This document shows, piece after piece, positions 1,633 through 24,000 of a stretch of 24,000 nucleotides of DNA. The DNA is from Lolliginicoccus levis (lineage in GTDB: Bacteria; Actinomycetota; Actinomycetes; Mycobacteriales; Mycobacteriaceae). The position numbers were made by a program, and so were the translations under genes. Under the pieces are notes generated by a model that saw only the letters and a list, made by a program, of their open reading frames with translations, was not told the DNA's origin and searched no databases. Positions within the stretch are counted from its first letter, which is position 1. Every line of letters begins with the position of its first letter. Location: the NCBI RefSeq assembly GCF_026008515.1, contig NZ_BQYM01000007.1:196067-220066 (forward strand). The letters are read 5' to 3'.

Positions 1633-1890
1633 CTAGCGGCTGGAGAAGGGGAGAAGCGCCATCTCGCGCGCGTTCTTCACGGCGATAGCGACCTGGCGCT
1701 GCTGCTGTGGCGTCAAGCCCGTCACTCGGCGTGAGCGGATCTTGCCACGGTCGGAGATGAAGGTGCGAAGCAGGTTGACGTCCTTGTAGTCAACGTGCTC
1801 GATACCGGCTGAGATCAGCGGGTTCTTCTTCGTCTTGCGACCCTGGTCTCCGCCCTTCTTCTTTACTGGTGCGGTGCTCTTCTTGCCCAT
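1633..1890 (-). CDS. rpsR: 30S ribosomal protein S18, Cys-less paralogue
   Basis: 85 aa. The stretch ...[53 protein letters not shown] is canonical S18. It has no Cys and is the last gene of the L28-L33-S14-S18 operon. Confidence 0.95.
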
Positions 1891-1918
1891 TTACCCTTCG
1901 TTCCTCAACGTTTGTGGT

Positions 1919-2224
1919 TTACCAGCTGGACTTGCTGACACCGGGGAGCTCGCCGCGGTGTGCCATCTCGCGCACGCGGACCCGGGAGAGTCCGAACTTG
2001 CGGAAGTAGGCGCGCGGGCGGCCGTCGACGGCGTCGCGGTTGCGCACCCGGATCGGGCTGGCATCGCGGGGCTGACGCTGCAGCTCGGAGACAGCGTCCG
2101 CGCGATCCTCTTCGGAGGTCGCGGGGTTGCTGATGATCTGCTTGAGCTCGTTGCGGCGAGTCGCGTACTTGGCGACGATGGCCTTGCGCTGCTCGTTGCG
2201 GGCGATCTTGGACTTCTTGGCCAT
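1919..2224 (-). CDS. rpsN: 30S ribosomal protein S14, long (101-aa) zinc-independent form
   Basis: [28 protein letters not shown]...[41 protein letters not shown] is S14. The 101-aa length and absence of Cys identify the C- type. Confidence 0.95.
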
Positions 2225-2388
2225 CAGCGCTCCTCGCGGAAGTCGACGTGCTTGCGAACGACGGGGTCGTATTTGCGCAGCACGATGCGGTCTGGGTTGT
2301 TTCGGCGGTTCTTGCGGGTCACGTACGTGAAACCTGTGCCAGCCGTCGACTTCAGCTTGATGATGGGGCGCACGTCATTTCGCGCCAT
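2224..2388 (-). CDS. rpmG: 50S ribosomal protein L33, Cys-less form
   Basis: This gene is absent from the supplied ORF track because it is shorter than 60 aa. Hand translation from the reverse-strand ATG at 2388 to the TGA at 2226-2224 gives [54 protein letters not shown], which is L33. There is no CxxC. The stop overlaps the rpsN ATG by 1 nt (TGATG). Confidence 0.9.
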
Positions 2389-2422
2389 GGTGTTCCCTTC
2401 CTAGTTCGATAGCGGGGTGGTG

Positions 2423-2659
2423 CTAGACCTTGTCGCCACGTGCACGGATCGCGGCGACAACGGCCTCGATGCCATCCCGATCGATGGTCTTGATGCCCTT
2501 GGTGGAAACCTGGAGCGTGACGTACCGGCCTTCGCTGGGCAGGAAGTACCGACGACGCTGGATGTTCGGGTTCCAGCGACGCGAGGTGCGCTGGTGCGAG
2601 TGGGATACGGACTTCCCAAAGCCCGGCTTGCGCCCAGTTACTTGGCAGTGCGCCGACAT
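2423..2659 (-). CDS. rpmB: 50S ribosomal protein L28 paralogue
   Basis: The internal ATG at 2659 of the 105-aa track ORF gives a 78-aa product, [39 protein letters not shown]...[31 protein letters not shown], which is L28. It has a single Cys only. Confidence 0.9.
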
Positions 2660-2763
2660 GACTACAGACCTCTCGTAAGTGACGTTCATTTTCGACAAAG
2701 CCGACGGGACACGGTACCTTCTCGGTAAGGAATCTGACAACCATTACCGATAAGGAGCATCGA
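2660..2763. promoter_or_regulatory. Divergent promoter/operator region of the two ribosomal-paralogue operons, with candidate Zur-type operator(s)
   Basis: This is the most AT-rich stretch of the window. First, 2680-2695 TGACGTTCATTTTCGA (reverse complement TCGAAAATGAACGTCA) resembles the actinobacterial Zur half-site GAAAATGA/TCATTTTC and lies 21-36 nt upstream of rpmB. Second, 2722-2750 TCGGTAAGGAATC-TGA-CAACCATTACCGA is a 13-3-13 imperfect palindrome (9/13 pairs, outer 7 perfect) lying 14-42 nt upstream of the GTG at 2764. The AAGGAG RBS is at 2752-2757. Confidence 0.4.
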
Positions 2764-4071
2764 GTGACCGATCAGCGCACACCCGTCGTGCTGGTCTGCG
2801 GATGGCAAGAAGATGCTAGTCTCATTGCGCGCGCATTTCAACGCGAGGGTACCTCAATCGTCCACTATGACCTCGCAGAGGTCAAAACGGGCGTCGTCTG
2901 CAGAGCATTGACCACCACTGACGGTGTCACGTCCCGCATGCGAACAACCCTGCTCGCGGCCGCCCCTGGTCGTGCAGCGGACGCGATCCGCGAGGATCTC
3001 CTTCCCTTGTTGCGCCGTCTGGCTAGCCGGAGCCGTGTAGAGCGGATATTACTCCTCCTGCCCCCGGCCCTCGACATCGAGGACCTCCGCGAGACCATCA
3101 GCACCGCTGCCGTCGCCGGGATGATCGGCCATCGCGACGGCCCGCTCCGCGACGACATCCGCATCGATGCGGTGCTCAGCGCCCTCGACGCGAAAACCTG
3201 GCTCGCCGACGCCACCAGTGCCGAGACCCTCGCCGAGCGCGGGCTAGCTGGCTGCCCGGACGAGCGCACCGTCGCTAGCGCAGTGACCAGCTGGGCCCGA
3301 TCCGCGGATGGCATCGCCGTCCTGGGCGCGCGAGCGGACCATGGCGGCCCCATCCTGGATCATCCTGGCCTCGACCATTTCCCACGCCTCGCTGCGATCC
3401 TGGACCGCCTCGCTCCCGGCGTTCCCATCGCCTGGCAGGGCGGCGACATCATCCCTGACCCCCACGCCCTGCTCGCGCTGCTGCCCGCGACCGCCAGCCG
3501 CCCGGCTGCCCCGAGCATCCACGACCCCCTGCTCGCCGCGCAGCCACCGCTCGAGGCCGACCACGGCATCCAGTGGCTCGAGTTCGGCGCGACCCGGCCC
3601 TTCCATCCGCAGCGCTTCCACGAGGCGCTCGACCCCATCCTCGACGGCACCATCCACGCGCGCGGCCGCGTGTGGCTCGCCACCGCTCCAGACGCGGTGC
3701 TCTGGCTCGACGCGGCCGGGGGAGGACTGACCGTCAGCGCCGCGGACCGCTGGCTCGCTGCGATGACCCCGAGCGAGCAGGACGCGCAGCCCGCGGATCG
3801 CACCGCGATGGCAGCGGCGCGCTGGACACCGGAGCACGGCGACCGCCATACCGCGCTCGTCCTGCTCGTCCATGACGGGCAGCCCGAGCGGATCCGGGAC
3901 GCGCTCGGGGCCGCGCTGCTCACCGATCCCGAGCTCGCCGCGGGCCACGAGCTGTGGCGGACATGGGAAGACCCCTTCGGAGAATGGCACCAGGATCCCT
4001 GTGCCGGCTTCCCGGGATACGGCGCCTCCACGGGCGCAATTGACATCGACACAAGGAAAGAAGGACACTAG
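2764..4071 (+). CDS. COG0523/CobW-family-like protein with a degenerate N-terminal GTPase domain and a CobW_C-like C-terminal domain
   Basis: 435 aa, GTG start preceded by AAGGAG. The N-terminus [14 protein letters not shown] occupies the position of the COG0523 P-loop (xVxVLTGFLGAGKTT) but has no GxxGxGK[ST]. There is no CxCC motif. The segment [52 protein letters not shown] looks like the CobW C-terminal domain. The gene is embedded among Zn-independent r-protein genes. Confidence 0.6.
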
Positions 4072-4613: not shown

Positions 4614-5240
4614 GTGCCTGTGCTGCTGACCATCCTGGATCTCTCTGGCATCGCTGCGTTCGCGGCATCCGGCGCGCTCGTTGGCGTTGCCAAGCGCCTC
4701 GACGTGTTCGGCATCTGCCTCGTCGGGGTGACCACAGGCATCGGTGGCGGCATCATCCGTGATGTGCTGCTGGGCATTCATCCACCCTCCTCGCTGCAGA
4801 CCTGGCCGGCGTTTGCCACGGCATTGTCGGCGAGCATCCTGGCGATGTTGCTGCACCCCGAGCTGCGTCGATTGCGCGCGGGCGTCCTGCTGCTCGATGC
4901 GATGGGGGTCGGGGTGTTCGCGACCGGCGGCGCGGCCATCGCGCTGGAGGCGGGCGCCGGGCCGCTCGCAGCGATCGTGGTGGGGACCGCGACAGCGATC
5001 GGCGGCGGGGTGATCCGCGACGTGCTCGTCAACGAGATGCCCCTGCTGCTGCACCGCGATCTCTACGCCGTGCCCGCGTTGCTCGGTGCCGCGCTGATCG
5101 TGGCCGCCGATGGGATCGACATGCCGAGCACTCCCGCGCTCGCGGCGGGCGTGGCGCTTGCTGCCGGGCTACGGCTCGCCGCGCTGCGCTGGGGCTGGAA
5201 CCTTCCCGTCGCCCCGCGCGCCCCGGAGACTCCGGGATAG
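4614..5240 (+). CDS. TRIC (trimeric intracellular cation channel)/UPF0126 family membrane protein
   Basis: 208 aa and about 7 TM segments. It carries the duplicated glycine motifs [13 protein letters not shown] and [14 protein letters not shown] that are typical of the YadS/YicG UPF0126 two-repeat fold. Confidence 0.75.
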
Positions 5241-5289
5241 CGCGGCGACTCTTACACATTGTTCAGGTGGGCAGTACACACTAGTGGGC

Positions 5290-5982
5290 ATGCGGATACT
5301 CGTTGTCGATGATGATCGGGCGGTGCGGGAGTCGCTTCGGCGGTCGCTGTCCTTCAACGGCTACACGGTGGACCTCGCCGTTGATGGCGTCGATGCCCTG
5401 GAGCAGGTCGCGGCCACCTCGCCGGACGCTCTCGTGCTCGACGTCATGATGCCCCGTCTCGACGGCCTCGAGGTGTGCCGCCGTCTGCGCAGCCAGGGCG
5501 ACGATCGTCCCATCCTGGTGCTCACAGCACGCGATTCGGTGTCCGAGCGAGTCATGGGCCTCGACGCCGGGGCCGACGATTACCTGCCCAAGCCATTCGC
5601 GCTCGAGGAACTGCTCGCGAGGCTCCGGGCGCTGCTGCGGCGACGCGGCGCGGCGGACGCCGACGACGGCACCGGCGAGGCGATGGAGTTCGCAGGGCTC
5701 ACCATGGATCCCGTGACCAGGGAAGTGACCCGCGATGAGCGGCAGATCAGCCTCACCCGCACCGAGTTCTCGCTGCTCGAGATGCTGATGGCCAACCCGC
5801 GGCGGGTGCTCACCCGCGCCCGCATCCTCGAGGAGGTGTGGGGCTATGACTTTCCGACCAGCGGAAACGCCCTCGAGGTGTACATCGGCTATCTTCGTCG
5901 CAAGACCGAGTCGGAAGGGGAGCCGCGGATCATCCACACGGTGCGTGGCGTGGGCTACGTGCTGCGGGAGACGCCCCCGTGA
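5290..5982 (+). CDS. mprA: OmpR-family response regulator, MprA-like
   Basis: [33 protein letters not shown]...[17 protein letters not shown] is a receiver domain, followed by a winged-helix C-terminus (...[13 protein letters not shown]). Synteny with mprB-pepD-moaB2-mscL matches M. tuberculosis Rv0981-0985c. The start is taken at ATG 5290; GTG 5284 is also possible. Confidence 0.85.
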
Positions 5983-7370
5983 GGACAGAGGGGTGGTTGC
6001 ACCCCTCGCGGCGCATCGGCCGCACGATGTCCCTCCGTACGCGCGTCACCTTGCTCGCGGCGTTCGTGGTGACGATCGCGGTCGCGCTGATGGCCGGCGC
6101 GGCGTTCAGCGTTGTTGCGCGCGCGCTCTACAGCGATGTGGATGACCAGTTGCGCAAGCGTGTCGATCTGATCGTCGCGTCGCACCTGCCCGAGCGGTTC
6201 GGCAGCGATGCGGTCACCGCGGCCTCGCTGTTCTCCGACACGCTCTCGGGCACCCTGATCTATCCCGACAACACCGCCGCGCCGATGTCGCCGTTGATCG
6301 AGCTGGGCGAGCCCGAGTTCGCGGTGATCCGGGGCGAGCAGGAATCGTCGCTGCGCACCATCGGCAACCGGCGCGTCATCGCGCAGCGCTCCAACCAGGG
6401 CGCCACGCTCGTCCTTGCCCAGGACCTTGCCCCCACCCAGGAGGTTCTCGACCGGCTTGCCCTCGTGCTGCTGATCGTCGGCGGATGCGGAGTGATCCTT
6501 GCTGTGGTCGCCGGCACCGGGGTGGGCCGGACCGGGCTGCGGCCGGTAGCAAGACTGACGGCCGCCGCTCAACGGGTGGCGCGCACCGACGACCTCACCC
6601 CCATTCCCGTCACCGGCGATGACGAGCTTGCCCGGCTGACCGAGGCGTTCAACTCGATGCTGCTCGCCCTGCGCGAGTCCCGGGAGCGCCAATCCCGGCT
6701 GGTCGCCGACGCGGGGCATGAGCTGCGAACCCCGCTGACCTCGCTGCGCACCAACACCGAGCTTCTGATCGCGGCGAGCAGGCAGGGCGCGCCCGCGCTG
6801 GCCCCCGAGGACATGGAAGGCCTCCAGGAGGACGTGCTCGCCCAGATCGAGGAGCTGTCCACCCTGGTCGGCGACCTCGTGGACCTCGCGCGGGAGGACT
6901 CGACCGAGCCCGGCATGGAACGGGTGGATATCGCGGAGATCGCCGACCGGGCCATCGAGCGCGTGCGCAGGCGCCGCACCGACGTCGAGATCGACGCGTC
7001 CACCCTCGGCTGGTGGGTGTGGGGCGATGCGGGCGGCTTGACCCGCGCATTGCTGAACGTGCTGGACAATGCCGCGAAATGGAGCCCTCCGGAAGGTCGC
7101 ATCACACTGCGGATGCAGCCAGGCCGCGGGCGCAACGTGGACGTGACCATCGAGGACGAGGGCCCCGGCATCCCGCTCGAGGAGAGGGCGCTGGTGTTCG
7201 AGCGCTTCTATCGCTCCGACGCATCGCGATCCATGCCCGGCTCGGGGCTCGGGCTCGCGATCGTCTATCACGTGCTGCACCGCCACGGCGGCAAGGTCAC
7301 CATCGACGATGCCGACGGCGGGGGCGCGCGAGTGACCCTGAGCATTCCCGGCGAACCGGTCGAACAGTGA
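5979..7370 (+). CDS. mprB: HAMP-domain sensor histidine kinase, MprB-like
   Basis: It has two TM segments, a HAMP region, the H-box [11 protein letters not shown], the N-box [13 protein letters not shown] and the G-box GSGLGLAIV. The GTGA overlap with the mprA stop suggests translational coupling. An alternative ATG lies at 6027. Confidence 0.85.
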
Positions 7371-7401
7371 TCCTGCTCTCGTGGCAGAATTATCTGTCCA
7401 G

Positions 7402-7420
7402 TCTCAGGATGCTCTCAGAG
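7402..7420 (+). promoter_or_regulatory. MprA-box-like direct repeat upstream of pepD
   Basis: TCTCAGGA-tgc-TCTCAGAG is two 8-bp direct repeats separated by 3 nt, the architecture described for M. tuberculosis MprA binding sites. It lies 80-98 nt upstream of the pepD ATG. Confidence 0.6.
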
Positions 7421-7499
7421 CGCCGATGCACCGTGTGGCTACAAGATCCGAACGGCGACGCCCCGGCAGCGGTCGCATGGACCATGAGGAGCTGATGTC

Positions 7500-8792
7500 A
7501 TGAACTACGGAGCTGAAGGGGGCAATCCGCCCGGCCGCGATCCCCGGTACGGACTGGGCAACCCGCCACAGCACTATCCACCCATGGGCGTGGAGCCACC
7601 GCCCGGCAGCCCGGCACCAGGAGGAACGGGCGGCCCCTCCCCGGGGGGCTCGCCCCCGGGGGGTCCGGGCGGTCCGCCACCGGGCGACCGCCAGCCCCGA
7701 GCCGAGCAGCAGCCCCGATCGCGCGGTTCGTGGATCATCGTGGGAGCACTCGTGCTGGCACTGGCCAGCGGCATCTTCGGTGGCCTCGTGGGCGCGGGGA
7801 TCGCTGGGCGCGATGGCGGCAGCGCGCAGACTACCCAGTTCGGTGGCCAGCTGCCCTCCGTGGCGGACCCGGAGGAGGAGGCGCCGCTAGGCTCGGTCCA
7901 ATGGGCGGCGGAGCGCGTGCTGCCGTCGGTGGTCAAGATCGATGTGGATACCGCAGCGTCCTCGGGGAGCGGCTCCGGGGTGATCCTGAGCAGCGATGGC
8001 GTGATCCTGACCAATAATCACGTGGTGGTGGGCTCCGATGGCACCGTGGAGGTGGCGTTCAACGATGGATCCGTCGCGCCCGGCCGGGTCATCGCTGGCG
8101 ATGCCCAGTTCGACATCGCTGTTGTCCAGGTCGAGGGCCGTACCGATCTCACTCCCGTCGAGATCGGAAGCTCGGGGGCGCTGAACGTGGGGCAGCCAGT
8201 GGTGGCGATCGGCTCGCCGCTCGGGTTGTCGTCGACAGTGACCACCGGCATCGTGAGCGCGCTGAACCGCCCGGTATACGCGGGTGGCGAGACGGCCGAG
8301 GAGACGTCGGTGATCGATGCGATCCAGACCGATGCCGCGATCAACCCGGGCAACTCGGGTGGCGCCCTGGTAAACCTCAATGGCGAGCTCGTGGGCATCA
8401 ATACGGCCATCGCGACGCTCGGGCGCGCCGGTGGCGGCCAGGGCTCGATCGGCCTGGGCTTCTCGATCCCGATCGACCAGGCCAAGCGCGTTGCCGATGA
8501 GCTGCTCTCCACCGGTGCGGTGCGCAAGGCGACCCTGGGCGTGCTGGTGGACATGCGTGACCCGGAGCGCGGCGCGCTGGTCACCGAGATCGTTCCGGAT
8601 GGCGCGGCCGAGCAGGCTGGCATCCCACCGGGGGCTGTGGTGGTCGGACTCGATGATCGGCCCATCGCGACCGCCACGGCGCTGATCGCGGCGGTCCGCT
8701 CGCAAGTACCGGGTGATGTCGTGGAGATCTCCTGGATTCCGCCCGGCGGCGGCGCGTTGCAGCGCGCTCAGGTCGAGCTGCGGGAAGGATGA
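7500..8792 (+). CDS. pepD: HtrA/PepD-like secreted serine protease with a PDZ domain
   Basis: 430 aa. It has a Pro/Gly-rich N-terminus, one TM segment, and a trypsin-like triad context (TNNHVV, DIAVVQV, GNSGGAL). The C-terminus is PDZ-like. A GAGGAG RBS lies at 7486-7491. Confidence 0.85.
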   Translation: MNYGAEGGNPPGRDPRYGLGNPPQHYPPMGVEPPPGSPAPGGTGGPSPGGSPPGGPGGPPPGDRQPRAEQQPRSRGSWIIVGALVLALASGIFGGLVGAGIAGRDGGSAQTTQFGGQLPSVADPEEEAPLGSVQWAAERVLPSVVKIDVDTAASSGSGSGVILSSDGVILTNNHVVVGSDGTVEVAFNDGSVAPGRVIAGDAQFDIAVVQVEGRTDLTPVEIGSSGALNVGQPVVAIGSPLGLSSTVTTGIVSALNRPVYAGGETAEETSVIDAIQTDAAINPGNSGGALVNLNGELVGINTAIATLGRAGGGQGSIGLGFSIPIDQAKRVADELLSTGAVRKATLGVLVDMRDPERGALVTEIVPDGAAEQAGIPPGAVVVGLDDRPIATATALIAAVRSQVPGDVVEISWIPPGGGALQRAQVELREG

Positions 8793-18222: not shown

Positions 18223-18273
18223 GAGTGGTGTTGCCGTCGCGGGGAGCGGCGCGCGGCGTGGTGCCGGGGAGCG

Positions 18274-18325
18274 GCGCTGGGGGTATGGCGCTGGGTGCCG
18301 CGCTGGGGGCATGGCGCTAGGTGCA
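18274..18325. repeat. Two tandem copies of a 26-bp G-rich unit
   Basis: GCGCTGGGGGTATGGCGCTGGGTGCC (18274-18299) and GCGCTGGGGGCATGGCGCTAGGTGCA (18300-18325) share 23/26 positions. They are preceded by a duplicated GGGGAGCGGCGC at 18241 and 18266. Confidence 0.6.
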
Positions 18326-18382
18326 GCGCGTCGATTTCCACACCCGGCGCAACGGCTGCTAAAGTTCCACACGACACAACCT

Positions 18383-18458
18383 GGGGCTATAGCGCAGTTG
18401 GTAGCGCGTCTCGTTCGCATCGAGAAGGTCGGGGGTTCGATTCCCCCTAGCTCCACCA
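18383..18458 (+). tRNA. tRNA-Ala (anticodon CGC), CCA encoded
   Basis: The sequence folds by hand into a cloverleaf: acceptor GGGGCTA/TAGCTCC with G3:U70, D-arm GCGC/GCGC, anticodon arm TCTCG-TTCGCAT-CGAGA, and T-arm GGGGG-TTCGATT-CCCCC. The total is 76 nt. Confidence 0.95.
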
Positions 18459-18467
18459 GTGTCAACG

Positions 18468-18517
18468 CAGGCCAGGGCCGTTCCGGTGATGAACCGGGGC
18501 GGTCCTGGCCTGTTTTT
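18468..18517 (+). terminator. Intrinsic terminator after tRNA-Ala
   Basis: CAGGCCAGGGCCG pairs with CGGTCCTGGCCTG at 12/13 positions and is followed by GTTTTT (18512-18517). Confidence 0.7.
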
Positions 18518-18540
18518 GTGCGCTAGTGGGGAGCTCCGGG

Positions 18541-18651
18541 GCCTTCTGGGTGAATCTGCCAGCTGATGTCACTCGACACGCCGCGACACGCTCCCGCATG
18601 CGTGACATGAGCTAGCAGATTTTGCGGGGACGGGCGCTCGGAGTTCGAGTC
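18541..18651 (+). repeat. Hairpin-repeat copy A (69-nt core 18553-18621, plus flanks shared with copy B)
   Basis: The left arm AATCTGCCAGCTGATGTCAC, a 29-nt loop and the right arm GTGACATGAGCTAGCAGATT pair at 18/20 positions. By hand alignment it is about 88% identical to copy B over 111 nt (13 substitutions and one 2-nt indel). Confidence 0.85.
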
Positions 18652-18693
18652 CGCCAACCGATGCAAGTAGGCGAATCGCGTAGCGTCGACGAT

Positions 18694-19188
18694 ATGGGCA
18701 CAGCACAGCATTCCCAGGAACCGTCGCTGCCAGCACGACCAACGGGCTTGCGCAGGCTCGCGTTCCGGCTGCCGATCATGCTGTACAAGCTCCGGCTCGG
18801 CTTTGTCCTCGGGGAACGGTTCATCCTGCTGCGCCACACGGGGCGCAAGTCCGGGCGGCTCCATGAAACGGTAGTGGAGGTCGTGGCGCACGATCCCGAC
18901 GAGGGCTCGTGGACCGTCGCGGCTGGATTCGGTCCGAAGACTGATTGGTACCGCAATCTGAGGAAGCAGCCAGACACTACGGTTCAGGTTGGCAACCGGG
19001 AGTTCCCCGTGGTGGCAACATTTCCCGACGAGGAGACCGGCGGCGAGATCATGGTCCGGTATGCCCATGCCCACCCAGCAGCTGCTAAGCGGAGCACTGC
19101 CTTCCTCGGGCATTCAGGCGACGCAACCCCAGAGGGGTATCGGCGGCTCGGTCATGCGATCCCGTTCGCAATCTTCAAGCCCGTCTAG
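18694..19188 (+). CDS. Nitroreductase-family deazaflavin (F420)-dependent oxidoreductase, Ddn/DUF385-like
   Basis: The ATG at 18694 gives 164 aa. ...LGERFILLRHTGRKSGRLHETVVEVVAHDPDEGSWTVAAGFGPKTDWYRNLRKQPDTTVQVGNREFPVVA...YAHAHPAAA matches the PF04075-type pattern (LLTHxGRxSGxxRxTxL...SDWYxNL...V.VG). Confidence 0.7.
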   Translation: MGTAQHSQEPSLPARPTGLRRLAFRLPIMLYKLRLGFVLGERFILLRHTGRKSGRLHETVVEVVAHDPDEGSWTVAAGFGPKTDWYRNLRKQPDTTVQVGNREFPVVATFPDEETGGEIMVRYAHAHPAAAKRSTAFLGHSGDATPEGYRRLGHAIPFAIFKPV

Positions 19189-19410
19189 CAAGGCTTGCAG
19201 TCGTTGGCGGCTCCAGCGCGACAGTGCGGATGCGTGAGCTGCGCCGGTGACATCCTCTGAGATCGCCTTGCGCGGGGCATGGGCGCTCCGGTCGCGCTCG
19301 CGGATTGCTGGTTCAGCGGCGCGCGATGCTGCTATCCCACCTGCCCGCCACTGCGGCTAGCCGGGTGCTAGCAACATGGTGGCTCGTTGCGGCCCCGCTG
19401 TTTGTGGGTG

Positions 19411-19523
19411 GCCCCTTCTGGGTGAATCAGCTAGCTGATGTCACTCGACACGCCGAGACACGTGCCCGCCTGCGTGACATTAGCTAGCAGATTTCGAGGG
19501 GACGGACGCCCGGAGTGCGAGAC
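19411..19523 (+). repeat. Hairpin-repeat copy B (69-nt core 19425-19493, plus flanks shared with copy A)
   Basis: The left arm AATCAGCTAGCTGATGTCAC, a 29-nt loop and the right arm GTGACATTAGCTAGCAGATT form 18 Watson-Crick pairs plus 1 G:T out of 20. It ends 38 nt before the kinase start codon. Confidence 0.85.
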
Positions 19524-19531
19524 TGGGCGTC

Positions 19532-20713
19532 GTGAATATTGCTAGCCAAGCCACGGATTGGTGGCGTGCCCGCTCGCCGGTGGAGCGCATCACCGTCTAC
19601 ATGGTGTGGCCGTGGTACCTGGTGCTCTGGATGCTTCCGCTGCTGTGGGTGGGAACGGCCTGGTTCGTCGCGCCGAGGCGGGATTGGTTGCTCTCCGCGC
19701 TGGTCATGGTGGTGCTGCTCGGCTTCGCAACAGTGGTGTTCCACGGCGGGATGCAGCAGCGCATCCACCCTGATTCGCCGGTGACGCGCGCGCCGTGGCG
19801 GTGGGCGACGGTGCTGCTTTTCGTGGCGGCCGTCCATTTCGCGGTGCTGGCAGTGGTGGGCGAGGGCGATGAGGACTGGGTGCTCGCGCATTTCTGGAGC
19901 GGCATCTTCGTCGTGGCGATCGCGCTGGGGCCATTGTTGCGGCAGCGCATGGCCGCTGTGGTGGGCCTGGTGGGCGCGGTCGCGGCCTTCGTCGTGGCGG
20001 GAACGGTTGGTTTGGCGGTCGCGGCAGCGGTGCTGGCGCTGGTGATGGTGCTGCTGGTGCATTCGACGCTGTGGCCGATCGATGTGATGCGGCAGCTCGA
20101 GGAATCCCGCGCGCGGGAGGCGGCGCTGTCGGTGGCGGAGGAGCGGCTGCGGTTCTCCCGGGACGTGCATGACGTGGTGGGGCGCGCCCTATCGACGATC
20201 GCCATCAAGTCGGAGCTGGCGGCGAAACTCGCGGATCGGGGTGATCCAGCGTCGGCGGCGCAGATGCGCGAGGTGGAGGGCATCGCGCACGAGTCGCTGC
20301 GGAGCGTGCGGGAGCTCGTCCGCGGGTACCGGACGATCGATCTGGACAGGGAGGTCCGGGGGGCTCGCGAGCTCCTCGAATCCGCCGGCATCACAACGAC
20401 CGTCGAGGGCGGATCCCAAAATGTTCCGGACCTTGTGCGGGAATCCGCGGCGTGGGTGGTGCGCGAGGCAGTGACGAACATCCTGCGGCACTCGCACGCC
20501 GGTAGCTGCCGCATCGTCATCGGGGTGGAAGGCGTGGCCATCACCAACGATGGCGCGGCCGCAGGGTCGCGGGCCACCGAGGGAGTCGGGCTGACGGGAC
20601 TGCGCGAGCGCCTGGCTACCGTGGGTGGAGAACTGTCCATCCGGCGCAGCGAGAACGAGTTCACAGTCGCGGCCCGGTTCCCCGGCTCCCGCTCGATGGG
20701 GGAGGCGCGATGA
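19532..20713 (+). CDS. Sensor histidine kinase, HisKA_3 (DesK/NarX-like), multi-TM intramembrane-type N-terminus
   Basis: 393 aa with about 5-6 TM segments and no sizeable extracytoplasmic loop. It has the H-box LRFSRDVHDVVGRALS, the N-box REAVTNILRHS and the G-box GVGLTGLRERL. The GTG start is uncertain. Confidence 0.8.
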   Translation: MNIASQATDWWRARSPVERITVYMVWPWYLVLWMLPLLWVGTAWFVAPRRDWLLSALVMVVLLGFATVVFHGGMQQRIHPDSPVTRAPWRWATVLLFVAAVHFAVLAVVGEGDEDWVLAHFWSGIFVVAIALGPLLRQRMAAVVGLVGAVAAFVVAGTVGLAVAAAVLALVMVLLVHSTLWPIDVMRQLEESRAREAALSVAEERLRFSRDVHDVVGRALSTIAIKSELAAKLADRGDPASAAQMREVEGIAHESLRSVRELVRGYRTIDLDREVRGARELLESAGITTTVEGGSQNVPDLVRESAAWVVREAVTNILRHSHAGSCRIVIGVEGVAITNDGAAAGSRATEGVGLTGLRERLATVGGELSIRRSENEFTVAARFPGSRSMGEAR

Positions 20714-21333
20714 CCAGCAACGAGCGCGTGATCAAGGTCCTGCTCGCCGACGACGAGAACCTGATCCGCAGTGCCCTGGCCGCGATGCTGTCGCTCGAGG
20801 ATGATCTCAAGATCATCGCCGAGGCCGCCGACGGGACCGAGGCGCTGGCGAAGGCCCGTGCGCTGAGCCCCGATATCGCCGTGCTGGACCTGCAGATGCC
20901 AGGCCTCGACGGTGTGGAGCTCGCCGAGCTGCTCACGCGCGAAGTACCGGACTGCCGGACGATCATCGTCACCAGCCACGCCCGCCCCGGCTACCTCAAG
21001 CGGGCCCTCGCCGTGGGGGCGCGGGGGTTCCTCCCGAAGACCGCCACCGGAGCCACCCTGGCCGACGTCATCCGCCGCGTCGCCGATGGTGGCCGCTACG
21101 TGGACCCTGACCTTGCCGCGGATGCCATCAGCGCCGGTGACAGCCCGCTGACACCGCGTGAGGCCGATGTGCTCGACGCCGCGGCGGACGGCGCCCCGAT
21201 CGAGGAAGTGGCCCGCCGCGTCTCGCTCGCGGCGGGCACCACCCGCAACTACCTCTCCTCGGCGGTGACGAAGCTCGGTGCACGGAACCGTTTCGATGCC
21301 TGCACCATCGCCCGCCAGCGCGGCTGGATCTAG
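20710..21333 (+). CDS. NarL/LuxR-family response regulator
   Basis: The receiver domain is IKVLLADDENLIRSALAAML...IAVLDLQMPGLDG. The C-terminus is a LuxR HTH (LTPREADVLDAAADGAPIEEVARRVSLAAGTTRNYLSSAVTKLGARNR). There is an ATGA overlap with the kinase stop. Confidence 0.88.
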   Translation: MTSNERVIKVLLADDENLIRSALAAMLSLEDDLKIIAEAADGTEALAKARALSPDIAVLDLQMPGLDGVELAELLTREVPDCRTIIVTSHARPGYLKRALAVGARGFLPKTATGATLADVIRRVADGGRYVDPDLAADAISAGDSPLTPREADVLDAAADGAPIEEVARRVSLAAGTTRNYLSSAVTKLGARNRFDACTIARQRGWI

Positions 21334-21336
21334 GAC

Positions 21337-22119
21337 CTACGCGCGCGGCTCCCACCGCCACGTTGCCCGTGCAAGCCACAGGCCAGCACCGATCCACACC
21401 ACGGTGGACAGCACATCCACCAGGACGATCGGCATGCCCAGCGCGGCCGGAGCAGAGGCGAGATCCGCGCCCATGCCGCGGGCGAGCAGGTCCGCGACGC
21501 CAGAGAACGGTGCCAGCAGCAGCCACGATCGTGCCTCGGCCTCGATCAACGGCTGCAACGCGAGCGTCGGGAACGCCACGCTCACCAGCAGCACCGGGAT
21601 CGTGGTGAACTGCACCGACGCAGCGCTCGTGGAGAACGCGCCCGTCGCGATGCCACCAATGATGCTCAGCATCACTACGCCCACCAGGCCCGCCAGCAGC
21701 AGAGCCCAGCTCTCGGGCGCCGGTGCGCCCAGCAGCGTGAAGGCACCCAGCACGAGCGCGCCCACGACCATACCGATCACCAGGTACGGCGCGGCGAGAG
21801 CCAGCACCATCTGCACCGGCGACAGCTCCGTGGTGCGCAACGCCTTGAACACATGGGACTCGCGGCGCACCGCGATCACGATCGCCAGCGCCGAGGCCAC
21901 CGACATCGTCACCAGCACCGGCGTGGTCGACGCGACCATCGTGCCCCACACCGCGCGATCGTCAGACTCCACGACCGTCGCCAGCAGGATCGCCATGACC
22001 GGGCCGAACGCCAGCATCGCCAGCACCATCCGCTGCTTGAATGTGTAGCGGACCTCGAACAGTGACATCCGGGCAACCCGCTTCGCCGGGCTCAGTGGGG
22101 CTATTGTTTGCGAGCTCAT
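21337..22119 (-). CDS. ABC-2 type transporter permease
   Basis: 260 aa with 6 TM segments and an ABC-2 topology. There is an ATGA overlap with the upstream ATPase gene. Its stop lies 3 nt from the response-regulator stop. Confidence 0.75.
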   Translation of the reverse strand: MSSQTIAPLSPAKRVARMSLFEVRYTFKQRMVLAMLAFGPVMAILLATVVESDDRAVWGTMVASTTPVLVTMSVASALAIVIAVRRESHVFKALRTTELSPVQMVLALAAPYLVIGMVVGALVLGAFTLLGAPAPESWALLLAGLVGVVMLSIIGGIATGAFSTSAASVQFTTIPVLLVSVAFPTLALQPLIEAEARSWLLLAPFSGVADLLARGMGADLASAPAALGMPIVLVDVLSTVVWIGAGLWLARATWRWEPRA

Positions 22120-23036
22120 GCCTGACCTCCTGCGATCTGATGGAAAACCTCATCGAGCGAAGCGGGATTGGCGCGGATCATCCCGAGCTCCACCCCCGCC
22201 TCGTCGGCCTGCTGCAACAGCCACAGCATCGACCGCTGCTGGTCCGCTGCCTCCACCACCACCGTCGGCTTGCCGCGCTGATCACCGACCGTGATCGACA
22301 CGCCCGCAGGCGGTCTCGGGCACCACCCGGGCGGCGCGGAAACCACCTCCGCCACCACGCGCGCCGGACGGCTCGCCAGCACCTCCTCCAGCGTCCCCTC
22401 CACGGCGAGCACGCCCTCATGCACGATGCCGACCCGGTCAGCGAGCTGCTCCGCCTCCTCCAGGTAGTGCGTCGTCAACAGCACCGTCGACCCCGCCGCC
22501 TTCAGATCACCAATGACCCGCCACATTCGCTTGCGCGATTCCGGATCCAGGCCGGTCGTCGGCTCATCCAGGATGATCAGCTCCGGGCTGCCCCACATCG
22601 CCAGCGCCAGATCCAGCCGACGCCGCTCGCCACCCGACAAGCTCTGCACCGCAGTGCCCGTCTTGTGCGCGAGATCCACGCGCTCGAGCACCCGTGCGGC
22701 ATCATCGCGCCGCGACGACAAGCCAGCATGCAGGTTCACCGTCTCCCGCACCGAGATCTCGCCGAAGTGACCACCCTGCTGCAGCACCACGCCAGTCCCG
22801 CGCCGCACCACATCAGGCTGCTCCCGCGGATCGCGCCCGAACACCCGGACAGAACCACCCGACCGATGCCGGAAACCCTGCACCGTCTCGAGAGTGGTCG
22901 TCTTGCCCGCGCCATTCGTGCCCAGCAGCGCGAAGCACTCGCCGCGCACCGCCCCGAACGAAACGCCGCGGACCGCCAGGAAGTCGCCATACCGGCACTC
23001 CAGCGAATCCACCTCCACAACCAGTTCACTGTTCAT
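22116..23036 (-). CDS. ABC transporter ATP-binding protein (DrrA/ABC-2 exporter type)
   Basis: It has Walker A GTNGAGKTT, the signature LSGGERRRL, Walker B LIILDEPTTGLD and the H-loop TTHYLEE. A C-terminal extension of about 80 aa is present. Confidence 0.9.
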   Translation of the reverse strand: MNSELVVEVDSLECRYGDFLAVRGVSFGAVRGECFALLGTNGAGKTTTLETVQGFRHRSGGSVRVFGRDPREQPDVVRRGTGVVLQQGGHFGEISVRETVNLHAGLSSRRDDAARVLERVDLAHKTGTAVQSLSGGERRRLDLALAMWGSPELIILDEPTTGLDPESRKRMWRVIGDLKAAGSTVLLTTHYLEEAEQLADRVGIVHEGVLAVEGTLEEVLASRPARVVAEVVSAPPGWCPRPPAGVSITVGDQRGKPTVVVEAADQQRSMLWLLQQADEAGVELGMIRANPASLDEVFHQIAGGQA

Positions 23037-23153
23037 GACACTTATCGTCTTCGGTTGCCGGGTTTCGCAGTAGAGCAGCGCATCACGAGAAAGTGGGAGG
23101 AATGCACGGGCGAGGCGTGACAGGTGTCATGGGGTGGGGGTGTGCCGTGCGCG

Positions 23154-23222
23154 AATTTGCTAGCTGATGTCACGCGACACGCCGCGACACGGTCTGTTTG
23201 GCGTGACATTAGCTAGCAGATG
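23154..23222 (+). repeat. Hairpin-repeat copy C (69-nt core)
   Basis: The left arm AATTTGCTAGCTGATGTCAC, a 29-nt loop and the right arm GTGACATTAGCTAGCAGATG form 17 Watson-Crick pairs plus 2 G:T out of 20. It matches copy B at 56/69 positions, and 8 of the 13 differences lie in the 3' part of the loop. Confidence 0.85.
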
Positions 23223-23352
23223 CTGGGGGCAGGTGAGCGGGGAGCCGGTCGGGCGCCTCATTTGTGACGCAGTCCACAGTGGAGTGATGGAACCATCGTC
23301 GCTCGGGTTGCGTCCTACTTCCCAAGGCGATTGCTGGCGACGACCAAAGGGG

Positions 23353-23925
23353 ATGGGCATGCGGGGAGCGGCGGCGGGGTTGGTTCTGGCTGCGGGGCTG
23401 CTGGTGGGGTGCGGCCTGCCTGTTGCCACCGAGGGTGGCGGGGAGGCGACGACCATCGCTGCCACCCCGACCGCGCCGCAGCGCCCGCCCGCGCTGTTCG
23501 ATCCGTGCACCGATATCCCCGACGAGGCGCTGGAAGCGGTGGATGTGGAGCGGGACTCGCAGTACATGAGCCTGTACGGGACGGTGAAGCTGTCGGGGGA
23601 GCACTGGGATGACCACCGGGAGTGCGCGTGGCGGGGCGAGGATCATCGCATCTTCATTGTCTCGGAGATGCGCTCGCTTGATGAGGTGCGCCAACGACCC
23701 ATCGCCTCGGTCGTCACCGACGTGGTGATCAATGGTCGTGCCGGGATCCGCAGCAACCTCGACTCGTGCGGGGCGCGGTTGTGCGCGGAGATCGCGCTGC
23801 CCACGGGGGAGGGCACGGTGTGGGTGAACCTGAGGTTGTCGCCCCTCGGGGACCGTTCGCTGCATGCTAACGAGGAGGTCATCCGCTACACGACCCTGCT
23901 CGAGCCCTATCTGCCTGCCCGCTAG
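23353..23925 (+). CDS. Putative secreted lipoprotein (DUF3558/LprB-LprC-like)
   Basis: The ATG at 23353 or 23359 follows AAAGGGG. The signal peptide with lipobox is MGMRGAAAGLVLAAGLLVGC. The mature part begins with a low-complexity linker and then ...ALFDPCTDIPDEALEAV..., and it has conserved-looking Cys pairs. Confidence 0.6.
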   Translation: MGMRGAAAGLVLAAGLLVGCGLPVATEGGGEATTIAATPTAPQRPPALFDPCTDIPDEALEAVDVERDSQYMSLYGTVKLSGEHWDDHRECAWRGEDHRIFIVSEMRSLDEVRQRPIASVVTDVVINGRAGIRSNLDSCGARLCAEIALPTGEGTVWVNLRLSPLGDRSLHANEEVIRYTTLLEPYLPAR

Positions 23926-23963
23926 CCACGAGCTAAAGCGCCGCGCGGCTCCTTACCTGGGAG

Positions 23964-24000
23964 TCTGCTGGTCATTGGCACGAGGCACGCCGCGACACGA
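23964..24000 (+). repeat. Hairpin-repeat copy D, divergent left arm plus conserved loop half, truncated by the window end
   Basis: TCTGCTGGTCATTGGCACGAGGCACGCCGCGACACGA aligns with copy C positions 23156-23192 at 27/37 positions. 15 of the last 16 positions (CACGCCGCGACACG block) match. It begins 39 nt after the lipoprotein stop. Confidence 0.6.

Follow-up and report, generated by a model that had tools for sequence, protein, structure and literature searches.

What is a hairpin-like repeat, present several times in the same orientation downstream of a tRNA gene, doing in the genome of an actinobacterium? The question is raised by a stretch of 24,000 nucleotides of Lolliginicoccus levis (NCBI RefSeq assembly GCF_026008515.1, contig NZ_BQYM01000007.1, positions 196,067 to 220,066 of the forward strand), the whole of which is here termed the window and supplies the coordinates used below unless a locus is named. 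A preliminary description, made from the letters alone, had recognized four copies of such an element. We find that they belong to a previously undescribed and unnamed family, which is dispersed, fixed and constrained in sequence across the genus Lolliginicoccus. As to its role, the reading that we favour, if tentatively, sets it beside REP/BIME, ERIC and Correia elements as a new family of their type, which selection would retain for a probable role in protein docking where transcription units end.

A dispersed 69-bp element with a conserved box

The unit spans 69 bp with sharp ends, and consists of two 20-nt, imperfectly complementary arms around a 29-nt spacer. The spacer has a set order: one free nucleotide precedes a 17-nt box, CGACACG-CCG-CGACACG (i.e., CGACACGCCGNGACACG), which is followed by 11 locus-specific nucleotides, here termed the filler. 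The two heptads of the box lie 10 bp, or one helical turn, apart, and in Tandem Repeats Finder the box comes out as a perfect repeat of period 10. The copies of the window, with the tRNA gene that precedes them, are:

18383–18518, plus strand: tRNA-Ala(CGC) gene (18383–18458) with its own terminator (18467–18518; stem 18467–18513, then T5), directly upstream of copy A
18553–18621, plus strand: copy A; left arm 18553–18572, box 18573–18590 (T + CGACACGCCGCGACACG), filler 18591–18601, right arm 18602–18621
19425–19493, plus strand: copy B; left arm 19425–19444, box 19445–19462, filler 19463–19473, right arm 19474–19493
23154–23222, plus strand: copy C; left arm 23154–23173, box 23174–23191, filler 23192–23202, right arm 23203–23222; in the divergent region between an ABC ATPase gene (minus strand) and a DUF3558 lipoprotein gene (plus strand)
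23962–24000, plus strand: copy D, cut by the window end; left arm 23962–23981, box 23982–23999 (GAGGCACGCCGCGACACG)

The four-copy family of a single polarity is real: a repeat finder returned it at the coordinates originally proposed, with three copies (18542, 19414 and 23143) alignable across 108 nt and a fourth member at 23961–23999. Moreover, the arm pattern GCTAGCTGATGTCAC (at most three mismatches) has seven matches in the window against 0.65 expected, a count reached by 0 of 100 shuffles; six of these are arm occurrences and one is unrelated. The arm ends AATCTGC ... GCAGATT are found in all copies. Copy A scores 91.7 bits in cmsearch. The box is free of mismatches in A, B and C, and has two in D, which is a degraded copy (14/20 arm and 16/18 box positions matching) recovered as a truncated cmsearch match (E 2e-6); its left arm begins at 23962, two nucleotides before the start first assigned to it. 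The pairings that had been counted by hand were all correct on recount: the arms of A form 18 Watson-Crick pairs with one C:A and one G:G, those of B 18 with one G:T and one A:A, and those of C 17 with two G:T and one A:G. The 29-nt spacer of these three copies was likewise correctly measured, as were the 72, 38 and 130 nt that separate A, B and C, respectively, from the next start codon. Across the family, 88–91% of the arm positions are paired. A G(T/A)CACG motif occurs three times directly on the left of the element and once inverted on its right. The filler, which had been taken to vary freely, sorts into subtypes (..CCTGC, ..CCAGC, ..GAAAC and ..TTGGC) that are usually kept between orthologous copies.

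A mechanical open reading frame of 252 aa (23167–23925) opens at an ATG within the left arm of copy C (MSRDTPRH...) and is in frame with the DUF3558 lipoprotein gene by chance; the true start of this gene is probably 23353 (MGMRGAAAG..., with a lipobox), and automatic annotation could over-extend it across copy C. A leader peptide starting at the left-arm ATG (MS.DTPRH) was considered and rejected: synonymous positions are invariant, the ATG is missing in some copies and there is mostly no downstream gene.

An exact-box scan with GTCACNCGACACGCCGNGACACG over 185,579 species, one genome each, retrieved eight copies in Lolliginicoccus suaedae, four in L. lacisalsi and nothing else other than one match in Microbacterium, which was dismissed as chance, the arms being absent. 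Further copies were reached independently of the box by the synteny of flanking proteins, and one extra variant copy was met by chance in ~117 kb. The family is thereby known at 12 independent sites in L. levis, L. suaedae and L. lacisalsi; the response regulator encoded in the window is 100% identical to the L. levis protein. Those outside the window lie between housekeeping genes, mainly convergent pairs:

acyl-CoA synthetase (ACS) / peroxiredoxin (AhpC)
ccsB / Na-Ca exchanger
NmrA-like / glyoxalase
GH15 trehalase / small protein
SpoU methylase / acyl-CoA oxidase (ACOX)
downstream of BVMO, thymidine phosphorylase and MFS transporter genes

Synteny supplied the ccsB site in L. levis-like Logan contigs and L. 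lacisalsi, the SpoU/ACOX site in L. lacisalsi and L. suaedae, and the ACS/AhpC site in L. lacisalsi. The position of every copy ahead of a plus-strand gene, to which the preliminary description had drawn attention, is hence an accident of the window. The eight and four exact-box copies, together with the one variant per ~117 kb, imply tens of copies per genome, not hundreds; the loci sampled amount to ~200 kb in total. The element is not present at the syntenic loci of Hoyosella rhizosphaerae and Hoyosella sp. YIM 151337 (L014 and L015), both of which have the same kinase-regulator-ABC module. The family appears to be confined to one genus, with at most tens of copies per genome.

Its separation from CRISPR stands. 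That the element would match no family with a name also proved right: cmscan of the whole window against Rfam (E <= 1) returned tRNA-Ala and chance matches only, and blastn against plasmids and phages returned chance Pseudomonas matches only, with none to a phage. Neither the box pattern nor an arms-only pattern matched viral contigs; the latter gave a single match in metagenomes (L016), which is coding and was set aside as chance. A covariance-model search added no members to those found by nhmmer, and a search of the literature on repeats in Lolliginicoccus or Hoyosella found no paper.

Fixation, sequence constraint and the history of copies A, B and D

At each of the six sites that allow comparison, viz., A, C, ccsB, GH15, SpoU and ACS, every species examined has the element. 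The coding DNA of the three Lolliginicoccus species is ~88–92% identical. From the occupancy it follows that the copies predate the species splits and have not moved since; the only differences between species concern copies B and D. Orthologues of copy A lie after tRNA-Ala in both L. suaedae (L007 2873–2941) and L. lacisalsi (L009 7073–7141). Copy C is identical at 69/69 positions in L. lacisalsi (L008 2812–2880), and its orthologue in L. suaedae (L003 4246–4314) has retained the arms and the box with the filler replaced (at least 7 of 11 positions differ). The replaced filler (AGGTGCCCAGC) resembles that of another L. suaedae copy (ATCGCCCCAGC, at L005) and shows a 9-nt identity within its own flank, which suggests patch replacement rather than point mutation. 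A guide-like role for the filler was dropped, since the identity and complementarity of the filler 11-mers to their 300-nt flanks are no higher than those of shuffled 11-mers.

To compare rates, the whole intergenic regions of six orthologous sets were aligned and the minimum number of changes per site was counted:

Box: 5 changes in 102 sites (0.05)
Arms: 40 changes in 240 sites (0.17)
11-nt filler: 18 changes in 66 sites (0.27)
Flanks: 236 changes in 802 sites (0.29)

Thus, relative to the flanking intergenic DNA, the box changes ~6x more slowly (Fisher test, p = 4e-9) and the arms ~1.8x more slowly (p = 6e-5), with the box also differing from the arms (p = 0.003), and the filler is indistinguishable from the flank. 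In the ccsB copy of L. lacisalsi, the inner arms have decayed (GTCAC to GCTCC and GTGAC to GAAAC), with the box and filler intact. Within the arms, conservation comes in patches that mirror each other, ATCTGCT.G on the outside and.TGTCAC on the inside being retained and the middle being variable, a pattern that looks like sequence recognition.

These observations bear directly on whether the element is a currently active MITE, or miniature inverted-repeat transposable element, whose 20-bp terminal inverted repeats and subterminal GWCACG repeats would be transposase binding sites. Its sharp ends and length of 69 bp (within the ~50–500 bp of such elements), its dispersal over unrelated sites and the polymorphism of B and D between species are all in keeping with this, and the layout of the G(T/A)CACG motifs may be likened to asymmetric transposon ends. 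However, no consistent target-site duplication emerged from the flanks of 19 copies, which display only scattered coincidences of 3–6 nt (TGG at the NmrA and GH15 copies and ~TTCGCG at the SpoU copy), and no transposase or integrase gene was found in the window or in the ~200 kb of sampled loci. Furthermore, the occupancy of all six comparable sites speaks against recent movement, and a selfish element's resident copies would be expected to decay as fast as their flanks, which these copies do not. Current activity is therefore improbable, even if the analogy to REP and MITE elements in logic, drawn at the outset, holds.

The polymorphic copies themselves have a local history that can be followed through three further features:

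18538–18552, plus strand: 5' flank common to A and B, GGCC(C)CTTCTGGGTG; counterpart at B, 19410–19424, by alignment
18622–18656, plus strand: 3' flank common to A and B; counterpart at B, 19494–19528; related to native sequence upstream of the kinase gene
18694–19413, plus strand: A-B segment, with a Ddn-like F420H2-dependent reductase gene (18694–19188) and a remnant of ~225 nt (19189–19413)

Copies A and B are 89% identical across 108 nt, and their similarity spans ~120 nt: a common 5' flank of ~15 nt (~45 nt with a gap) reaches back to the tail of the tRNA terminator, and a common 3' flank extends for ~35 nt. Hence, the 69-nt extent first given holds for the unit, but not for this pair. 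The 5' flank is not common to other family members. That B carries A's flanks points to segmental duplication or recombination and not to clean transposition, which again does not favour a MITE. As far as alignment can tell, copy B is a local duplicate (paralogue) of A together with flanking sequence, and D, whose 5' flank resembles that of A, is probably another. The preliminary impression that the element fills every gap after tRNA-Ala accordingly comes down to copies A and C, which are old, and to B and, probably, D, which arose by local duplication. Copy D is located in L. levis-specific sequence, which starts at most 7 nt from the lipoprotein stop codon at 23925 and takes the place of the 35 nt that, in both relatives, separate the lipoprotein gene from the gene that follows it.

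In L. suaedae, copy A is followed by the Ddn-like gene and an intact gene for an 805-aa HATPase_c membrane protein (L007 33–2450), with no B upstream of the kinase gene. In L. levis, the order is A, the Ddn-like gene, a 225-nt remnant of the HATPase_c gene (19189–19413) and B; window positions 19316–19401 align with L007 1890–1805, and the rest of that gene is deleted, the deletion ending at copy B. In L. lacisalsi, a single copy, with A's left flank and B's right flank, remains, and the whole Ddn-like segment is missing. L. suaedae also differs directly upstream of the kinase gene, where a sequence that occurs once in L. levis and L. lacisalsi is duplicated in tandem (cgtgaatagtg..cgtgaatagtg; L003 7940–8000, minus strand).

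The indels at A/B and D are in favour of an attC-like recombination site bounding mobile gene cassettes downstream of tRNA-Ala. Like an integron attC, the element combines imperfectly inverted arms with a centre that varies and a polarity that is fixed, four copies of it occur within 5.5 kb, it bounds a gene that is variably present, the loss in L. lacisalsi has left one composite copy, and D sits at the edge of a lineage-specific insertion. In contrast to attC, it lacks conserved R/L cores (there is no GTTRRRY/RYYYAAC at the arm ends), has a conserved box in its centre and is accompanied by neither an attI nor a promoterless cassette array; by Pfam annotation, the 24-kb window contains no recombinase or integrase gene. 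Moreover, regulated operons of both strands are among the supposed cassettes, the element stands alone, in conserved synteny, at each of the other eight sites, and the likeness of A and B over ~120 nt inclusive of flanks allows ordinary homologous recombination to explain the deletion of the Ddn-like segment. Of the early comparison with attC cassettes, the association with indels thus survives, and the features that define attC are absent; we consider this reading very improbable.

Hairpin, operator and protein-docking readings

Whichever strand is folded, a strong stem is predicted (-41 to -60 kcal/mol; z as low as -5.5 in copy C), and no loop structure is conserved between copies. With a 29-nt spacer, the extrusion of a cruciform from duplex DNA is unlikely, so that any hairpin would form in RNA or single-stranded DNA. 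The G:T positions of the arms had been read as evidence for an RNA specific to the plus strand. Across 15 copies, however, there are 19 G:U pairs on the plus strand against 17 A:C oppositions, i.e., G:U pairs of the minus strand; wobble being about equal on the two strands, this argument fails. Compensatory changes in the arms, which had been proposed as a check, are not significant: in a sample of only three close species, the covariation score was reached by 65/500 shuffles with 15 copies and by 15/500 with 19 copies, and pairs changed on both sides number 3 against 3.5 expected and 7 against 5.9 expected, respectively. The covariation of the arms is within the range of unconstrained related sequences.

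The element resembles intrinsic terminators as a stem-loop at gene ends with few U after it. Nevertheless, the latter have a short G+C-rich stem, a 3–8-nt loop and a U-tract, whereas the element has a 20-bp stem, a 29-nt loop and only 2–4 T after the stem; its sequence, and not only its shape, is common to the sites, and it often stands behind a separate canonical terminator. Such hairpins precede copy A, the GH15 copy and the SpoU copy, and at the ACS copy the AhpC terminator is on the far side. A terminator scan of 18300–24000 called that of tRNA-Ala and none of the element copies. These separate terminators, along with the location of C in a divergent promoter region, argue that the element is not simply the terminator of the upstream gene, as had been suspected. 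In a convergent gap, either orientation of the element is co-oriented with an upstream gene, and hence it is only at A, B and D that orientation can be related to transcription, with B and, probably, D in turn derived from A. As regards a polarity linked to replication, the orientation of the element agrees with the majority gene direction in the window and opposes it at the ccsB locus; the local GC skew on its strand is of mixed sign. An internal promoter was also rejected, there being no sigma-70-like site in 18300–24000; by eye, GTGACA of the arm resembles a -35, with no -10 after it in A, B or C.

A broader RNA-level role, in which the 20-bp stem is a bidirectional terminator, 3'-end stabilizer or RNase III target and the box is read by an RNA-binding protein, would be served by stems that are strong on both strands, by arms that end A-U-U on either strand and are conserved above the flank level, and by the ccsB, SpoU and GH15 sites, where the element is the only hairpin for at least one of the convergent genes. 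A precedent is offered by the Correia hairpins, which are RNase III substrates (PMC2649163). Against it stand the outcome of the terminator scan, with the long loop and few T noted above, and the divergent setting of copy C; in addition, several copies lie behind a dedicated terminator and are hence probably poorly transcribed. Neither the covariation nor the wobble, which is without strand bias, lends it weight, there is no loop structure common to the copies, and the best-conserved part is the unpaired box, which survives where the stem has decayed (ccsB). On balance, we regard an RNA-level role as unlikely.

The box invites a different comparison. GACAC is the asymmetric motif of WhiA in actinobacteria (PMC10243135), and two direct GACAC pentamers 10 bp apart are like WhiA or OmpR/PhoB-type direct-repeat sites, a likeness that is one of resemblance only. 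The element could, in principle, be the operator of a transcription-factor regulon, bound by the adjacent NarL/DesR-type response regulator, by an OmpR-type regulator on the direct repeats or by WhiA. The window copies lie 38–130 nt ahead of genes, the kinase-regulator and ABC transporter operons lie between B and C, the heptads are one helical turn apart, and the inner arms share TGTCA/TGACA with a conserved palindrome upstream of the ABC operon:

23116–23131: compact palindrome (C)ATGACA-NN-TGTCAT(G), upstream of the ABC operon; also at L003 4366, L008 2762, L014 12422 and L015 8767

Yet, this fits the window only. Most copies sit in the gaps of convergent housekeeping gene pairs, where there is no promoter for them to control, whereas known WhiA sites are just upstream of promoters; L. 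suaedae has no copy upstream of the kinase gene; and a regulon needs no common 69-bp architecture. Further, Hoyosella has the same two-component/ABC module without the element but with CATGACA-NN-TGTCATG. The compact palindrome is the sole such site in all loci and is kept in all five species, i.e., three of Lolliginicoccus and two of Hoyosella, including the two without the element, which makes it a better operator candidate than the element; it is likely the operator of the adjacent NarL/DesR-type two-component system. There is accordingly little to commend the element itself as a regulon operator, and we rate the chance as slim.

The protein-docking reading that we favour combines the dispersal, fixation and constraint of the element with the binding of a protein, which, along with its consequence, we infer. 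The family would have spread by copying in the ancestor of Lolliginicoccus and would since have been retained by purifying selection on sequence and not only on pairing, above all on the heptad pair. A putative sequence-specific protein would contact this pair, which is flanked by the mirrored GTCAC/GTGAC and ATCTGCTAG/CTAGCAGAT blocks, on one face of the duplex, and the module so formed would be placed at transcription-unit ends, as are REP/BIME, ERIC and Correia elements. If transcribed, the arms could fold into a 20-bp stem, possibly stopping or protecting transcripts, an effect that we judge to be secondary. The tRNA-proximal copy A would have been duplicated locally with its flanks in L. 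levis, giving B and probably D, and the copies may act as recombination substrates that generate differences in gene content, such as the missing Ddn-like segment of L. lacisalsi.

Several points weigh against this preference. A regulator site would be oddly placed between convergent genes, a location that is equally expected of a tolerated selfish insertion. Part of the sample was retrieved by the exact-box scan and so leans towards intact boxes; only the orthologues at ccsB, SpoU and ACS, together with the four that belong to copies A and C of the window, are free of this bias. Among the former, the SpoU box differs at 3/17 positions, and in the ACS copy the arms are identical at 40/40 positions while the first heptad has two changes (2/17 in the box), a drift which implies that the constraint is not uniform. 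Lastly, with three close species, the absence of covariation is compatible with selection on the stem.

The heptad pair and the mirrored arm blocks may go further than a docking site and assemble a nucleoprotein complex of ~70 bp with a putative dedicated Lolliginicoccus protein at transcription-unit boundaries. Such a complex may serve to insulate convergent genes, topologically or as a roadblock, or may be a site for site-specific recombination, in which case the A-to-B and A-to-D duplications and the indel of the Ddn segment may be the products of that protein and not of homologous recombination. We hold this proposal to be doubtful.

Neighbouring sequences and the place of the element among interspersed repeats

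By Pfam annotation, the window encodes MprAB, PepD, MoeA, WS/DGAT, a two-component system and an ABC transporter. The OmpR-type response regulator, histidine kinase and HtrA-like protease at 5110–8792 resemble MprA-MprB-PepD. On the minus strand, at 1633–4071, genes for small ribosomal protein paralogues (85, 101 and 54 aa) stand beside that of a CobW_C-domain GTPase, an arrangement that resembles the mycobacterial zinc-responsive alternative ribosomal protein loci. Between the WS/DGAT gene and tRNA-Ala, at 18267–18329, a 26-nt unit (GGGTGCAGCGCTGGGGGCATGGCGCT) is repeated in tandem 2.4 times. Short tandem repeats also occur at other loci: an array of a 15-nt unit (CCGCTAGCTGGGGGC, 5.8 copies), which includes the arm motif GCTAGCTG, lies between the ccsB stop and the element in one L. 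levis-like Logan assembly (L017 1886–1977) and is nearly gone in a second (L018 1378–1410), and arm-like repeats adjoin the copies at L004 (TGCTGGC x3) and L011 (CAGCAGAT.TGGCGCGAA). Polymorphism beside one copy of the element is seen in the Logan runs SRR24210472-74.

The kind of sequence to which the element belongs, viz., the small extragenic interspersed inverted repeat with a conserved core, is already well known. ERIC/IRU elements are imperfect palindromes of low to moderate copy number, which are conserved at extragenic sites across related species and have no agreed function; those of enterobacteria differ from the present family in their length of ~127 bp, their occurrence in a different phylum, the absence of sequence similarity and the lack of an asymmetric heptad box. 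The Correia elements (CREE/NEMIS) of Neisseria are, like the element, small and intergenic, with terminal inverted repeats around a conserved core; they measure 100–155 bp, number hundreds of copies, come with a duplicated TA target and move between strains. In contrast, the element is 69 bp long, occurs in probably tens of copies and shows neither a target duplication, nor sequence similarity, nor recent movement. In Correia elements, the conserved core between the inverted repeats binds IHF, the RNA hairpin is an RNase III substrate, and neighbouring genes are affected (PMC2649163).

REPINs are inverted REP sequences in pairs, mobilized by RAYT transposases (IS200/IS605-like Y1), with a spacer between the two arms (PMC3337134). 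Like the element, REPIN/BIME sequences have two inverted, spaced arms that fold into one long hairpin, and they are extragenic, often at 3' ends or between convergent genes; they are also docking sites for host proteins, several of which bind REP/BIME elements (PMC3337134, PMC2817692, PMC3479197), a property that the element would share if the protein-docking reading is right. A single REP already forms a small palindrome and bears, at one end, a GTAG or CGTC tag (PMC3733652). In contrast, the only palindrome in the element arms is the 6-nt GCTAGC, GTAG and CGTC are found on neither strand, and the arms are not self-folding. The copy number of REPs is usually >100 per genome, as opposed to the tens implied for the element.

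For Lolliginicoccus, the finding brings a small family of interspersed inverted repeats whose copies are fixed and, instead of simply decaying, are held by purifying selection, with the strongest constraint on an unpaired, asymmetric box of 17 nt. With tens of copies in three genomes, the question long associated with REP and ERIC elements, i.e., whether such repeats are junk, RNA structures or protein sites, becomes testable here. For annotation, the likely operator of the two-component/ABC system is the separate compact palindrome and not the repeat. The repeats also mark places where gene content differs between the species.

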